Shown: positions 1 to 4,974 of the stretch, one piece after another
How positions within the stretch are numbered: the first letter of the stretch is position 1
Layout of the letters: every line of letters starts with the position of its first letter
Source of the DNA: a virus
Taxonomy: Duplodnaviria; Heunggongvirae; Uroviricota; Caudoviricetes
Virus record (IMG/VR): IMGVR_UViG_2684622552_000003
Direction: 5' to 3' (one strand)
Length of the DNA: 4,974 nucleotides
Program-made: the position numbers and the translations under genes
Notes under the pieces: model-generated
What the model was told of the DNA's origin: nothing
What the model saw: only the letters and a program-made list of their open reading frames with translations
Database searches by the model: none

Positions 1-1074
1 CAGCCGAGTAATGATGCGTCCGGCTATCTGGATTTTTTCAAAGGAGAGATAGGGAAAACACATCTGGCCCAGGAGCTGTGGACACAAATTGATAACGGTC
101 AGCTTGCCCCGGATCTGGCTGAAATCAGGACATCCATTACGAATGTCAGCAATGAAATCACCGAGACCGTTAACAAGACACTGAAAGACCAGAGTGCAGC
201 GATCCAGCAGATACAGAAGGTTCAGGTTGACACCAGTAATAACCTGAACAGTATGTGGGCTGTGAAGCTGCAACAGATGAAGGATGGACGCCTTTATATT
301 GCGGGTATCGGTGCCGGTATTGAGAATACCCCGGACGGCATGCAGAGTCAGGTGCTTCTGGCTGCAGACCGGGTGGCATTTATTAACCCGGCGAATGGTA
401 ACACCACTCCTGCACTGGTCACACAGGGCGGACAGACGTTTATTAATGAGGCGCTGATCAAGTTCCTTATTGCTCCCACGATTACCAGTGGTGGTAATCC
501 TCCGGCATTCTCCCTGACACCTGACGGCAAGCTGACTGCTAAAAATGCGGATATCAGTGGCAGTGTGAATGCGAACGCCGGGACGCTCAACAATGTCACG
601 ATTAATGAGAACTGTCTGATAAAAGGAAAACTGTCTGCCAGTCAGATTGAGGGCGATATTGTCAAAGCGGTGGGAAAGGCTTTTCCACATGATCCGCGCG
701 AATCAGAATTTAAACCGTGGCCGTCAGGTACGATTACTGTGAGGATAGATGATGATCAAAAATATGACAGACAAATTGTCATTCCTGCTGTTGCATTTCG
801 TGGGGCGAAGCACCGGCAGGCATCCACAAACAGTGAATATTATTCATCCTGTCGTCTTGTTGTAAAAAAGAATGGTTCTGTAATTTATGACAAATCGACC
901 AACGATGTTACAGCCATTTACACAGGTATCATGGATATGCCAGCCGGTTCTGGAGGAATAACTCTTGAGTTTTCAGTTTCTGCGTCAAACGGGAATTATT
1001 ATCCTTCAGCGACTATCAGCGATTTGCTTGTGGTCATTATGAAAAAATCCACAGCTGGTATCAGTATCAGCTGA
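1..1074 (+). CDS. J: Central tail fibre / host specificity protein J, C-terminal ~358 codons (5'-partial; start lies upstream of the window)
   Basis: Frame 1 is open from base 1, with no stop before the TGA at 1072-1074; the ORF track only reports it from the first internal Met at 253. The translation (…[41 protein letters not shown]…[45 protein letters not shown]…[18 protein letters not shown]) closely resembles the receptor-binding C-terminus of lambda gpJ as I recall it. Confidence 0.9.
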
Positions 1075-1093
1075 ATGTTTAAAACCCAAACCG

Positions 1094-1117
1094 GGCGCCA
1101 GAAATGGCGCCTTTTTT
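1094..1117 (+). terminator. Rho-independent terminator downstream of J
   Basis: Perfect 6-bp GC stem GGCGCC (1094-1099) / GGCGCC (1106-1111) with a 6-nt loop AGAAAT, followed directly by a T6 run (1112-1117). It lies 20 nt after the J stop codon. Confidence 0.65.
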
Positions 1118-1767: not shown

Positions 1768-1794
1768 AGCCCGCCGGTTCAGGCGGGCTTTTTT
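1768..1794 (+). terminator. Rho-independent terminator downstream of lom
   Basis: 8-bp stem AGCCCGCC (1768-1775) / GGCGGGCT (1782-1789) with a 6-nt loop GGTTCA, followed by a T-run (1789-1794). It begins 27 nt after the lom stop codon. Confidence 0.75.
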
Positions 1795-1800
1795 GTGGGG
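1795..1800 (+). promoter_or_regulatory. Shine-Dalgarno sequence for stf
   Basis: GTGGGG at 1795-1800, 5 nt upstream of the ATG at 1806. Confidence 0.4.
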
Positions 1801-1805
1801 TGAAT

Positions 1806-4800
1806 ATGGCAGTAAAGATTTCAGGTGTACTGAAAGACGGCACAGGGAAACCGGTACAGAACTGCACCATTCAGCTGAAGGCAAAACGTAACAGTACCAC
1901 GGTCGTGGTGAACACGCTGGCCTCAGAAAATCCGGATGAAGCCGGGCGTTACAGCATGGACGTTGAGTACGGTCAGTACAGCGCTATTCTGATGGTGGAA
2001 GGATTCCCGCCGTCACATGCCGGGACCATCACCGTGTATGAGGATTCAAAGCCGGGGACGCTGAATGATTTTCTCGGTGCCATGACGGAGGATGATGCCC
2101 GTCCGGAGGCACTGCGCCGTTTTGAACTGATGGTGGAAGAGGTGGCGCGTAACGCGTCCGCAGTGGCACAGAACACGGCAGCCGCGAAGAAGTCAGCCAG
2201 CGATGCCAGCACATCTGCCAGTGAGGCGGCAACCCATGCGACTGATGCCGCAGGCTCAGCACGCGCAGCCAGCACGTCCGCCGGACAGGCCGCATCGTCT
2301 GCTCAGTCAGCATCTTCCAGCGCAGGAACGGCATCAACAAAGGCCACGGAAGCGTCAAAAAGTGCTGCCGCTGCAGAGTCCTCAAAAAGCGCGGCGGCCA
2401 CCAGTGCCGGTGCGGCAAAAACGTCAGAAACGAATGCGGCAGCGTCACAACAATCAGCCGCCACTTCTGCATCCACCGCGACCACGAAAGCGTCAGAAGC
2501 TGCCTCCTCAGCCAGGGATGCGTCGGCTTCAAAAGAGGCGGCAAAATCATCAGAAACGAGCGCAGCCTCGAGCGCCAGTAGTTCCGCTTCCTCGGCAACG
2601 GCGGCAGGCAATTCCGCGAAAGCGGCAAAAACGTCCGAGACGAACGCTAAGTCTTCTGAAACGGCAGCGGAACAGAGTGCCTCCGCAGCAGCAGACTCAA
2701 AAACAGCGGCTGCATCATCTGCCAGCGCCGCGTCAACAAGTGCCGGGCAGGCCTCAGCCAGTGCCACCGCTGCCGGAAAGTCGGCAGAAAGTGCCGCATC
2801 GTCTGCTTCAACAGCCACAACGAAGGCTGGCGAAGCCACTGAACAGGCCAGCGCAGCAGCGAATTCTGCTTCCGCAGCGAAGACATCCGAAACGAACGCG
2901 AAAGCGTCGGAAACCAGCGCAGAATCCTCAAAGACGGCTGCCGCATCGTCAGCCAGTTCGGCGGCGTCATCGGCATCATCTGCGTCTGCTTCAAAAGATG
3001 AGGCGACCAGACAGGCGTCAGCGGCGGCAGAGAGTGCGTCAACGGCATCCACGAAGGCGACAGAGACGGCAGGAAGTGCGACGGAGGCAGCTCAGAGCAA
3101 AAATGCGGCTGAATCCGCGGCAACGCGCGCCGAGACAGCTGCAAAACGGGCAGAGGATATTGCATCTGCCGTGGCGCTTGAGGATGCAAGCACGACGAAA
3201 AAAGGGATAGTACAGCTCAGCAGTGAGACCAGCAGCGAATCTGATACGCTCGCAGCAACACCGAAAGCGGTAAAGGCTGCAAACGACAACGCTGAAACAC
3301 GCCTTCGGAAAAACCAGAACGGGGCAGATATACCTGATAAAGACACCTTCGTAAAAAATATTGGCGCAGCGAAAGCTGCCAGCGGCAATATCAGCATCGG
3401 AGGAGACAGCAATAACTGGACGACGGCGCAATTTATCGAGTGGCTGGAGTCTAAGGGGGCGTTCAATCATTCATACTGGATGTGTAAAGGCTCATGGGCT
3501 TACGCTGCCAATAAAATCATCACGGATACCGGTTGTGGGAATATACAACTTTCTGGCGCTGTAGTTGAGGTTATGGGGGGTCGAGAGGCTATGACTATTC
3601 GCATCACCACCCCCACGACCGCAACGAACGGCGGAACCGTCAAGGCACAATTTACCTACATCAACCACGGTGACAATTATGCGCCAGGCTGGAGACGGGA
3701 CTTTAATCGAGCTGGTGATTCAATGTCAGGCCAGTTAACTTTGGCGGATATGTCACAGCCATTAAGAACACCAGGTGGTGGCATATTTGCCAATGATGGC
3801 AACTTGTATATCAATAAACCGGGTTTCGCTGGATGGATTGATGCGCTCTTTTTGAAATTAACAGGAGGCACAATAACCGGGTCGCTTACCGTTAATGGTG
3901 GCATTAAGGGTAATGCTTCAACGGCTACGAAGCTTCAAACGCCAATAAATATTAATGGTGTTAAGTTTGATGGCTCAGGTGACATCAACATTAATACCTT
4001 AGTGTCCAGAGGTATGGTGGCCGCATTAAGTGGCAATACACAAGGCACCCCAGGCGTTCAGATGTATGAAGCGTATAAAAATGGCTACCCCACGACTTAC
4101 GGCAATGTGCTTCATATGAAAGGTGCGAATGCTGCAGGAGAGGGTGAATTGCTTATCGGCTGGAGTGGTACAAGCGGTGCCCATGCTCCGGCATTTATTC
4201 GTTCACGACGGGATGCTACCGACGCAAACTGGTCGCTATGGGATCAGCTTTACACAACGGCTTATCCTCCTTCAGAGCTTTATCCTGCAGGGGCACCGAT
4301 ACCGTGGCCATCAGACACAATTCCATCTGGTTATGCTCTGATGCAGGGGCAGACTTTTGATAAATCAGCATATCCGAAACTTGCAACCGCTTACCCATCT
4401 GGTGTGATCCCTGATCTGCGTGGATGGACAATTAAGGGTAAACCCGCCAGTGGTCGCGCTGTATTGTCTCAGGAACAGGATGGTATTAAATCGCATACCC
4501 ACAGTGCCAGTGCATCCAGTACGGATTTGGGGACGAAAACAACCAGTTCGTTTGATTATGGTACTAAGTCCACGAATAACACCGGGGCGCATACACATAG
4601 TATTAGCGGGACAGCAAATAGTGCAGGTGGGCACCAACACCAGAGTTCTGGACCATATGCGAATTCTAATAGAACTGCACTCTTTCCTAACGGTTATACC
4701 CAGGTTTCAGTCACAAACGCACCAGTTGTACCACAGGAATCTGGCTCAGGTACGAGCCGTATATCAGGGAAGACATCATCAGATGGAGCACATACCCACT

Positions 4801-4974
4801 CATTGTCTGGTACTGCCGCATCTGCAGGGGCACACGCACATACTGTCGGTATTGGTGCCCATGCACACACTGTGGCGCTGGGTGCACATGGACACACCAT
4901 CACCGTTAACGCTGCTGGTAACGCGGAAAACACCGTCAAAAACATCGCATTTAACTATATTGTGAGGCTTGCAT
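1806..4974 (+). CDS. stf: Side tail fibre protein Stf (StfR-like long form), 1056 codons in the window; 3'-partial only in that the stop codon begins at the final base 4974
   Basis: My own codon-by-codon translation of frame 3 from ATG 1806 shows no stop through GCA at 4971-4973. This ORF is not in the supplied track, presumably because it lacks an in-window stop. The N-terminus [37 protein letters not shown]…[16 protein letters not shown] and the C-terminus …[10 protein letters not shown]…[33 protein letters not shown]…GIGAHAHTV…[28 protein letters not shown] match lambda Stf and Rac StfR as I recall them. The final residues RLA are the normal Stf C-terminus, so the gene ends 2 nt beyond the window. 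Confidence 0.9.
2163..3170 (+). repeat. In-frame periodic coding repeat within stf: 24 consecutive 14-codon (42-nt) units, Ala/Ser/Thr-rich, Ala at position 1 in 22 of 24 units
   Basis: Cutting the Stf translation into 14-mers from [14 protein letters not shown] (codon at 2163) gives 24 units, for example [14 protein letters not shown] / [14 protein letters not shown] / [14 protein letters not shown] / [14 protein letters not shown] / [14 protein letters not shown] / [14 protein letters not shown]. At nucleotide level the near-identical motif GC(A/G)AA(A/G)ACaTC(A/C)GA(A/G)ACGA recurs at 2415, 2541, 2625 and 2877, and the spacings of 126, 84 and 252 nt are all multiples of 42. Confidence 0.85.

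Follow-up and report, generated by a model that had tools for sequence, protein, structure and literature searches.

The 4974-bp window analysed here, which is the entire contig JZWN02000014.1 of Escherichia fergusonii GTA-EF03, very probably (at a probability of roughly 0.9) carries a complete stf (side tail fibre gene) belonging to a lambda-like prophage of this strain, in the order J - lom - stf (- tfa) and with a product built from five or six modules. Support for a complete gene came from its 1056-codon frame, from purifying selection on that frame and from complete genomes with 98.8% identity, where a gene of the same length precedes tfa, and functional side tail fibres are probably encoded by this prophage. 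The gene is real and intact but ordinary, and has already been annotated in related genomes. Since the window is the whole contig, downstream extension in the GTA-EF03 assembly was impossible and the 98.8%-identical locus L006 (E. fergusonii CP057104.1) served as a stand-in; tfa and the remainder of the prophage lie off the GTA-EF03 contig and were seen only in near-identical genomes.

Table 1. Features of the window and modules of the predicted Stf protein (aa, residues of Stf).
Feature	Position	Strand	Remarks
Gene J, 3' end (central tail fibre / tip attachment protein)	1..1074	+	last 357 codons and stop, including C-terminal receptor-binding domain
lom, Ail/Lom outer-membrane beta-barrel protein, 199 aa	1142..1741	+	Pfam PF06316, full length, E 4.9e-123
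Intrinsic-terminator-like hairpin and T-run, between lom and stf	1768..1799	+	terminator scan
stf coding sequence, 1056 codons	1806..4973	+	open frame 3; base 4974 is the T of a presumed TAA
StfN domain, aa 1-94	1806..2087	+	PF08400; PDB 9e7m/9mgh
Ala/Ser-rich proximal rod, aa 105-455	2118..3170	+	50 consecutive heptads, consensus xAxxSAx, no stutter
Conserved junction segment, aa 456-513, KKGIVQLSS...	3171..3344	+	first module junction at 3' end
Mu S' / P7 Sv / P2-like tail fibre domain, aa 514-636	3345..3713	+	PDB 8ju3
Shaft/knob module, aa 637-824	3714..4277	+	sub-modules 637-731 and 732-824
Phage tail collar domain, then T4 gp37-type receptor-binding needle, aa 825-1056	4278..4973	+	PF07484, PDB 2xgf
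Variable loop between HxH motifs 3 and 4, aa 946-995	4641..4790	+	counterpart of gp37 specificity region

Reading frame, neighbouring genes and selection

Translation of positions 1806-4974 gave 1056 sense codons and zero stops with a single T (base 4974) remaining after codon 1056, which agreed with the preliminary description of frame 3 as open and uninterrupted for 1056 codons from ATG 1806. The nearest in-frame stop upstream of stf is a TGA at 1764-1766, and the GTG at 1800 is a second in-frame start candidate; ATG 1806 yields MAVKISG, the start of both lambda Stf and StfR and position 1 of Pfam PF08400. At the 3' end, close relatives all read ...GTGAGGCTTGCA TAATG, where the TAA overlaps the ATG of tfa. 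L006 was 98.83% identical over all 4974 bases with zero gaps and continues GCA-TAATG into tfa (13171-13746), a 191-aa Caudo_TAP gene, and the overlap of stf stop and tfa start was also seen in CH4799, P276M and lambda. Judging from these relatives, a stop codon and tfa are likely to follow base 4973 in GTA-EF03. Database proteins of exactly 1056 aa numbered 12 (95-99% identity), and a search of NCBIfam found no family match for the whole 1056-aa protein.

stf is absent from the ORF list because the gene runs off the contig end, so that a caller needing an in-window stop misses it, as had been pointed out. The largest ORF listed within the stf region (+ strand, 2203-3210, 335 aa) is an out-of-frame artefact; a further spurious ORF lies in the rod region (- strand, 2303-3052), and another (- strand, 1973-2275) was called as a gene in a public collection. 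The same collection already calls stf on this contig, and relatives at 99% identity are named in RefSeq. The case is mainly an annotation point: a caller demanding an in-window stop loses the largest gene of the contig and may report spurious Ala/Ser-rich rod ORFs in its place.

The genes J (1-1074), lom (1142-1741) and stf (from 1806) all lie on the + strand in an order that matches lambda, Rac, CH4799 and L006, which places stf within the late tail operon right behind J and lom, the position occupied by lambdoid Stf/StfR genes. The J segment, called as a gene on the contig, matched Pfam PF09327 and PF12421 and showed 53% identity to the C-terminus of lambda J. The hairpin between lom and stf has a stem of 8 bp with 7 GC pairs and is followed by TTTTTGTGGG (terminator scan).

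The dN/dS of stf was 0.28 in comparison to L006 (26 nucleotide differences, 12 of them non-synonymous), 0.19-0.20 to CH4799 and 0.13 to K-12 stfR, indicating across several divergence levels that the frame has been maintained under continued purifying selection. This outcome bears on the alternative that stf, like Rac stfR, is left over from a defective prophage and is decaying, being open by chance or inactivated only recently elsewhere, so that no fibre is made. Such decay could be argued from the 93% identity of the N-terminal 521 aa to StfR of the cryptic (defective) prophage Rac, from the Rac right-end genes (a pin-like resolvase, ynaE and ynaM) that stf relatives also have, from strain P276M, where a 5'-truncated copy and a frameshifted tfa lie in a DLP12-like remnant, and from the contig itself, which shows the J end, lom and stf alone. 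However, the frame is stop-free over 3168 nt while the other frames of the region have stops, the tail module around the allele is intact in complete E. fergusonii genomes (G/T, H, M, L, K, I, J, lom, stf, tfa) and the 10 kb upstream are free of pseudogenes, and related stf genes are present in cultured lambdoid phages. Together with the selection on the frame, these results make a decaying remnant distinctly unlikely.

Modules of the Stf protein

The complete stf was found to be mosaic, as had been suggested, with at least five modules whose nearest relatives differ from module to module; PDB relatives were found for four of them (9e7m, 5yvq/8ju3, 2xgf and 9cuy). The StfN domain of lambdoid Stf/StfR proteins was identified at the N-terminus, where PF08400 matched aa 1-134 (E 7.2e-71; 237 bits against a cut-off of 26.6) and aa 1-94 matched PDB 9e7m/9mgh 'Tail fiber protein' (E 2.9e-51), 9e7m being the chain of the lambda Stf N-domain. 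In Ur-lambda, StfN forms a dodecameric collar anchoring four fibre trimers at the gpV/gpM junction (PMC12617516).

The long proximal rod of this group of proteins is represented by the 50 unbroken heptads, with a lag-7 autocorrelation of 0.42 (z = 10), z = 8-10 at every further multiple of 7 through 56 and Ala at one register position in 45 of the 50. This periodicity, considered alongside the lambda model, in which the rod is assigned as a coiled coil (PMC12617516), suggests that the rod is a trimeric coiled coil and provides the estimate of its length. Tandem DNA repeats were rejected as the origin of the rod length, as TRF gave one weak 21-bp array of 1.9 copies and the periodicity is at the protein level.

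The conserved segment at aa 456-513 is common to StfR, lambda, Mu S and a phage-plasmid fibre, and PDB 5yvq / 8ju3 (Mu S) matched aa 437-524. DNA alignment showed AACCAGAA.GG.GC.GATAT.CC in 5/5 sequences, with similarity to CH4799 and StfR ending just after it, and junctions were mapped at the DNA level to the NGADIPDK linker (~3340) and the GDSMSG motif (~3720). The Mu S'-type domain was matched by PDB 8ju3 over aa 495-637 (E 7e-66) and tblastn put its identity to Mu S', P7 Sv and PSP3 gp19 at ~75%; StfR, lambda Stf and CH4799 Stf lack this domain, identity to the last being broken at 3344-3721 of the window. The phage-plasmid fibre was 86% identical over aa 461-694.

The shaft/knob module showed 98% identity to CH4799 Stf, 65% to P7 Sv and 55% to the SSU5 fibre, and its sub-module at aa 732-830 was ~72% identical to the 980-1024-aa Stf classes. 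A PDB sequence search with aa 637-830 gave no match at E < 1. An AF2 monomer model of the module (58-sequence alignment) reached a pLDDT of 64 and a pTM of 0.41, a low confidence of the kind to be expected when a trimeric fibre is modelled as a monomer, and its comparison to the PDB by Foldseek returned none at E < 0.3. The top non-significant Foldseek matches were T4 gp34 and R-pyocin fibres.

At the C-terminal tip, PF07484 covers aa 829-876 and PDB 2xgf (T4 gp37 tip) matched aa 825-1056 (E 1.5e-78). Seven HxH motifs lie along the needle at aa 897, 929, 943, 996, 1010, 1019 and 1028, each aligned to an HxH of T4, and iron coordination by these motifs is predicted from the sequence. For T4 gp37 itself, seven iron sites are reported to have been described in the paper on 2xgf. 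The ~215-aa C-terminal homology described for the T4 gp37 / lambda Stf tip family (Magaziner and Salmond 2022, PMC9659904) was found here together with the C-terminal ending of the family. The loop at aa 946-995, whose gp37 equivalent sets receptor specificity (PMC9659904), was unlike any characterised fibre compared: its counterparts in lambda, StfR, T4 and the Salmonella 1040-aa class are all different, alignments to the first three break there, and identity to the Salmonella class is 94.6% as far as aa 945, beyond which that class diverges and is 16 aa shorter.

Comparison with known fibre systems

RefSeq proteins of E. fergusonii and E. coli named 'prophage tail fiber N-terminal domain-containing protein' (clusters P0001-P0012, e.g. 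CP057104.1) are likewise 1056 aa long and 95-99% identical, have their modules in the identical order, occupy the corresponding place between J-lom and tfa, and show point differences only. Ten 1040-aa proteins have the same architecture as the 1056-aa class, and one of these proteins occurs on 847 Salmonella contigs.

The placement of the protein nearer to the StfR class held in comparison to Rac StfR (E. coli K-12, b1372, 1120 aa), as the first 521 aa align gap-free at 92.7% identity, and StfN and the 50-heptad rod are equally long in the two proteins. Rac StfR also has the collar and seven-HxH tip, and the tfa-pin-ynaE-ynaM neighbourhood is common to Rac and the stf relatives. In contrast, the central 300 aa of StfR are unrelated, a different shaft segment and the Mu S'-type domain taking the place of its aa 522 to ~765 here, its tip loop is different and GTA-EF03 Stf is 64 aa shorter.

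For lambda, insertion of one C into NC_001416 restored a 774-aa ORF, in line with the length and the frameshift split described for Stf of lambda PaPa (orf-401 + orf-314), and the frameshift site is without counterpart in GTA-EF03 stf. The resemblance of both ends to the 774-aa Ur-lambda Stf was also substantiated, with 85.5% identity over aa 1-304, including a matching StfN, and ~68-89% in the C-terminal blocks; the heptad rod, the KKGIVQLSS junction, the collar, the HxH tip with the same ending and the stop overlapping tfa are common to both. The differences are that lambda has 35 heptads in comparison to 50, making its rod 15 heptads (exactly 105 aa) shorter for lack of the part equivalent to aa 305-409 of the window protein, that the lambda hinge and distal segment at aa 394-528 (SPALTGTPTAPTA...) are replaced here by 328 aa of other modules, and that lambda has eight HxH motifs instead of seven and a different tip loop.

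The T4 gp37 tip (2xgf) aligned through chain residues 28-242 to aa 825-1056, with 7/7 HxH in register and an identical C-terminal end, whereas the loop between HxH 3 and 4 is ~16 aa longer than that of gp37 and unrelated in sequence, and the rest of gp37 is non-homologous. The chaperones also differ, being gp38/gp57A in T4 and Tfa in lambdoid phages (PMC9659904).

As regards the Mu S' (PDB 8ju3) / P7 Sv / P2-like H fibres, the variable part of Mu G(-) starts with a stretch ~75% identical to aa 495-637, but the domain is internal here and not in an invertible cassette, and both the gix site and the distal receptor-binding part of S' are absent. Because the protein resembles Mu S' and relatives carry a resolvase gene, we considered whether stf could belong, as one arm, to a host-range switch that works by DNA inversion (as in Mu G, P1 C and e14 P), its Mu S'-like part being the invertible cassette; Mu S' and P7 Sv both come from invertible segments, and the Pin-like resolvase gene directly follows tfa in relatives. 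However, a search of the window for gix/pix-like sites (AAACCNNGGTTT with <=2 mismatches) gave 3 matches in comparison to 1.9 expected and zero at the junction, the gix sequence of Mu falls opposite a gap when aligned to the window, and neither CH4799 nor K-12 has inverted repeats that join stf with the tfa-pin interval. The fibre gene showed no 26-bp gix/cix/pix site with an inverted copy, and no second, opposite fibre end with its chaperone was found: L006 has no second, inverted stf'/tfa' set, and L006 and CH4799 each have a single stf-tfa pair and then the resolvase. Without crossover site, inverted repeats or second cassette, this highly improbable invertible segment was ruled out.

That reads from several prophage fibre genes were stitched into one short contig might be suspected of a stand-alone 4974-bp contig in a 29-contig short-read draft with repeated prophage genes (J, stf/tfa junction) at its ends, but such an assembly artefact is next to impossible and was ruled out by gap-free colinear matches (98.8% over 4974 bases) in two independent complete E. 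fergusonii chromosomes, as well as a Logan assembly, and the same architecture recurs in twelve distinct 1056-aa and ten 1040-aa proteins.

Proposed fibre and receptor contact

Mosaic tail fibres are textbook knowledge and the stf finding raises no new question; the gene is a clean natural example of modular fibre design, and its junctions show natural splice points. Chimeric lambda Stf proteins built for DNA delivery exploit this modular design (PMC11338833).

A model of the fibre encoded by the complete stf was based on the Ur-lambda and T4 gp37 structures, published Stf roles being found in PMC12617516, PMC11338833, PMC12312913 and PMC9659904. One fibre would consist of three Stf chains, whose StfN domains (aa 1-94) would clamp the tail tube at the gpV/gpM junction, and the 50-heptad Ala/Ser coiled coil would form a proximal rod ~15 nm longer than that of lambda, as 105 extra residues are counted at an assumed ~0.15 nm each. 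After the conserved junction, the Mu S'-type domain and then the shaft/knob module would follow, and the fibre would end in the collar and a putatively iron-binding HxH needle, with folding aided by Tfa, the chaperone encoded downstream. The loop at the tip (aa 946-995) may touch a surface receptor, either an OmpC-type porin or the LPS core, and this contact could provide a fast, reversible first adsorption ahead of J binding its own receptor. The mosaic probably originated from recombination at short conserved linkers common to lambdoid, Mu/P1/P2-like and SSU5-like fibre genes.

A more speculative interpretation, which we regard as rather doubtful, is that the combination of the 50-heptad rod, Mu S'-type domain and gp37-type needle targets a receptor other than K-12-type OmpC, with the heptad-quantised rod acting as a ruler for O-antigen or capsule thickness. 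The needle in this combination is the one with the private 50-residue loop, which was found mainly in E. fergusonii.

Reading frame and gene neighbourhood of stf

Translation of the window from ATG 1806 to base 4974 gave 1056 sense codons and zero stops, so that the open frame claimed in the preliminary description was correct as written, with the window ending in ...GTG AGG CTT GCA T and base 4974 remaining as a lone T after the last codon. The nearest closure 5' of this frame is a TGA at 1764–1766, and the ATG is preceded by a Shine-Dalgarno-like GGGGTG and opens MAVKISG..., a start common to lambda Stf and to StfR, the Rac prophage fibre of K-12. It had also been claimed that an ORF caller would miss the gene, and the frame is indeed absent from the mechanical ORF list of the window because it runs off the window end.

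The window coincides with the entire contig JZWN02000014.1 (4974 bases; assembly GCA_000968895.2) from the 29-contig draft of Escherichia fergusonii GTA-EF03, a ground-beef strain, and near-identical loci served to read beyond its end. Alignment with a locus in the complete E. fergusonii chromosome CP057104.1 (L006) was gapless from end to end of the window (98.83% identity over 4974 bases), and L006 encodes a 99%-identical protein (P0002). After GCA this locus reads TAATGGCATTC, where a TAA stop shares bases with the ATG start of a tail fibre assembly (tfa) gene (Caudo_TAP, 191 aa), and the TAATG junction also occurs in E. coli CH4799 (the otherwise closest E. coli stf), E. coli P276M and lambda. 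Additionally, twelve database clusters of exactly 1056 aa showed 95–99% identity to the stf product. Based on the L006 continuation, the shared junctions and these clusters, we infer with high confidence that the stf stop is TAA, with its first T alone within the window. Nei-Gojobori dN/dS values in the stf frame were 0.28 against L006, 0.19–0.20 against CH4799 (two colinear parts) and 0.13 against K-12 stfR (N-terminal 510 codons), indicating at the sequence level that the frame is under purifying selection at several divergence depths.

Features of the window and of the stf product
Feature	Position	Strand	Evidence or remark
J, last 357 codons	window 5' end	+	PF09327, PF12421
Terminator-like hairpin and T-run	1093–1112		directly after J
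lom	between J and stf	+	PF06316, E 5e-123
Terminator-like hairpin and T-run	1768–1789		directly after lom, 5' of ATG 1806
stf	1806–4973	+	PF08400 'prophage tail fibre N-terminal' (E 7e-71), PF07484 phage tail collar domain
Antisense ORF in rod	1973–2275	−
Antisense ORF in rod	2029–2628	−
Out-of-frame ORF within stf, in rod	2203–3210	+	335 aa, among largest ORFs listed in region
Antisense ORF within stf, in rod	2303–3052	−	249 aa, among largest ORFs listed in region
Ala/Ser-rich rod	aa 105–455 (2118–3170)	+	50 consecutive heptads, xAxxSAx, register unbroken
Junction segment KKGIVQLSS...	aa 456–513		conserved, common to Mu S (5yvq, 8ju3)
Collar domain and needle	aa 825–1056		T4 gp37 tip 2xgf, E 1.5e-78
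Loop between HxH motifs 3 and 4	aa 946–995		differs from lambda, StfR and T4

At L006 the 10 kb upstream is taken up by a tail module of lambda type without breaks (T, H, M, L, K, I, J, lom), and the downstream order is tfa, a Pin-like resolvase, ynaE, ynaM, a dinI-like gene and then host prfC. Judged from sequence, the L006 region belongs to a lambdoid prophage whose right end resembles that of Rac, and the gene at window 1806 is stf. The two hairpins flank lom, which is therefore bracketed by terminators as it is in lambda, and stf expression presumably relies on antiterminated late transcription. The stf of strain GTA-EF03 could alternatively be a decaying remnant, as only 5 kb of its prophage is visible and in P276M the copy is truncated and its tfa broken, but this is improbable given the intact stf frame, the dN/dS range of 0.13–0.28 and sister genomes in which the tail module is intact.

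In every close relative the gene after tfa encodes a Pin-like resolvase (L001 9853–10443, L006 13844–14434, L003 8085–8675), perhaps an orphan invertase like that of Rac. In J, the receptor-binding C-terminus (window 643–1071) showed at most 70% identity to any phage record, and identity to lambda J was ~53% over the whole visible C-terminal part; use of LamB as in lambda is improbable for this central fibre.

N-terminal domain and heptad rod

Residues 1–94 of the stf product matched the solved lambda Stf N-domain (PDB 9e7m/9mgh, E 2.9e-51), bearing out the N-terminal likeness proposed earlier. In Ur-lambda, which has the unsplit fibre, four trimeric fibres are anchored at the gpV/gpM junction by a collar of twelve StfN-type domains (PMC12617516). 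The preliminary description had put lambda Stf at about 774 aa, split by a frameshift into orf-401 and orf-314, and Rac StfR at about 1.1 kaa. Both figures held, as one C inserted at AAAGCCC^ACTGG of NC_001416 fuses the two lambda ORFs into one of 774 aa, where R393 and S528 have the numbering given for the Ur-lambda protein (PMC11338833), and K-12 StfR has 1120 aa.

Autocorrelation of residues along the rod had peaks at multiples of 7 and nowhere else (lag 7: 0.42, z = 10; up to lag 56: z = 8–10), and Ala occupied one register position in 45 of the 50 heptads. In this stretch, global alignment against reconstructed Ur-lambda Stf required a single gap, where lambda lacks 105 residues or exactly 15 heptads, while StfR aligned to aa 1–521 gaplessly at 92.7% identity. 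The lambda difference suggests that rod length varies by whole heptads, and by analogy with the lambda counterpart, modelled as a proximal trimeric coiled coil (PMC12617516), the rod would be ~15 nm longer than lambda's at ~0.15 nm per residue. The long other-frame and antisense ORFs inside the rod are by-products of GCN/TCN codon bias, to which the annotated orf206b of lambda can be likened; that at 1973–2275 is called as a gene on JZWN02000014.1 in the public collection.

Central modules and their junctions

The block aa 514–636 resembles the beginning of Mu S', P7 Sv and P2-like fibres at ~75% identity and matched a solved structure, that of the Mu fibre (8ju3, E 7e-66). StfR, lambda Stf and CH4799 Stf all lack it. 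DNA identity to CH4799 ends at window 3343 and restarts at 3722, and the following shaft/knob module (aa 637–824) showed 98% identity to CH4799 Stf and 55–65% relatedness to the SSU5 fibre and P7 Sv, with ~72% identity to 980–1024-aa Stf classes in its second half (aa 732–830). No solved relative of aa 637–824 was found by sequence search, and a weak AF2 monomer model of this region (pLDDT 64) gave no significant fold match. A five-way DNA alignment of the window, CH4799, K-12 stfR, Mu S' and a phage-plasmid fibre revealed a conserved core encoding QNGADIP, with the window being of StfR/CH4799 type up to GATAAAGA and of Mu S'/plasmid type from ACCTTC..AAAAATATTGG onward. The mosaic nature claimed for the gene is thus substantiated by modules with Mu S', CH4799 and T4 gp37 relatives and by DNA-level junctions near 3343 and 3722. 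Fibre genes of unrelated phages are said, by Haggard-Ljungquist in 1992 and Sandmeier in 1994, to recombine at short conserved linkers, and in this classical account such linkers would be the recombination sites that produced the mosaic.

The phage-plasmid p2017-01-4CC_1 fibre showed 86% identity over aa 461–694 before diverging, and may have donated or received the central block. Downstream of this 1129-aa fibre (L010 1344–4733; NZ_AP027746.1, a large plasmid), a 'receptor-recognizing protein' is encoded separately. In P7 Sv (AF503408.1 38310–39332) the counterpart of aa 679–818 lies N-terminal to that of aa 521–635, the reverse of the order in the window.

The likeness of the central module to Mu S' and the resolvase of relatives prompted a test for an invertible host-range cassette, which was rejected, as no gix/pix-like site was found in the window (Mu gix aligns to a gap there in the five-way alignment), no suitable inverted repeats in relatives and no second fibre cassette at L006. 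An assembly chimera was excluded by colinear matches in complete genomes.

Fibre tip and proposed function

Comparison of the translation with T4 gp37, as the preliminary description had suggested, matched its tip to the collar domain and needle, with all seven HxH motifs in register and an identical C-terminus; StfR likewise has seven such motifs and Ur-lambda eight. The loop between the third and fourth motifs is the counterpart of the region that determines specificity in gp37-type tips (PMC9659904). No other region separates the stf product from a 1040-aa class found on 847 Salmonella contigs, which has 94.6% identity up to aa 945.

By homology, three chains would form one fibre, clamped to the tail by the StfN domains, projected outward by the Ala/Ser coiled coil and lengthened by the Mu S'-type and shaft/knob modules, with an HxH needle folded with the help of Tfa. 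The tip loop may then bind a surface receptor reversibly and so speed adsorption ahead of J action. Ur-lambda (OmpC; PMC12617516) and Gifsy-1 (LPS core Gal II; PMC12312913) behave in this way, with reversible side-fibre binding before J, and it is by analogy that we infer the trimer state, dimensions, chaperone dependence and receptor of the fibre. The sequence itself, its homologous matches, the heptad periodicity and the purifying selection are shown directly.

The stf observation is real and correctly interpreted, but ordinary. Tail fibre mosaicism is a long-established theme, an exact-sequence look-up found the identical 1056-aa protein already called on JZWN02000014.1 in the public collection (that record only), and 99% relatives are already named in RefSeq. 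What it yields is an annotation caveat, a precise module map and a rod-length difference of exactly 15 heptads relative to lambda.

The 5'-truncated P276M copy of this allele (L004 5573–7982; NZ_CP044293.1), equivalent to window 2912–4974 at 99.3% identity, is annotated as a 601-aa 'phage tail protein' and belongs to a DLP12-like remnant adjoining ompT and envY, in which tfa is frameshifted. Two tail fibre clusters (P0026 and P0162) are labelled 'short-chain fatty acid transporter' in NCBI records, an evident misannotation.
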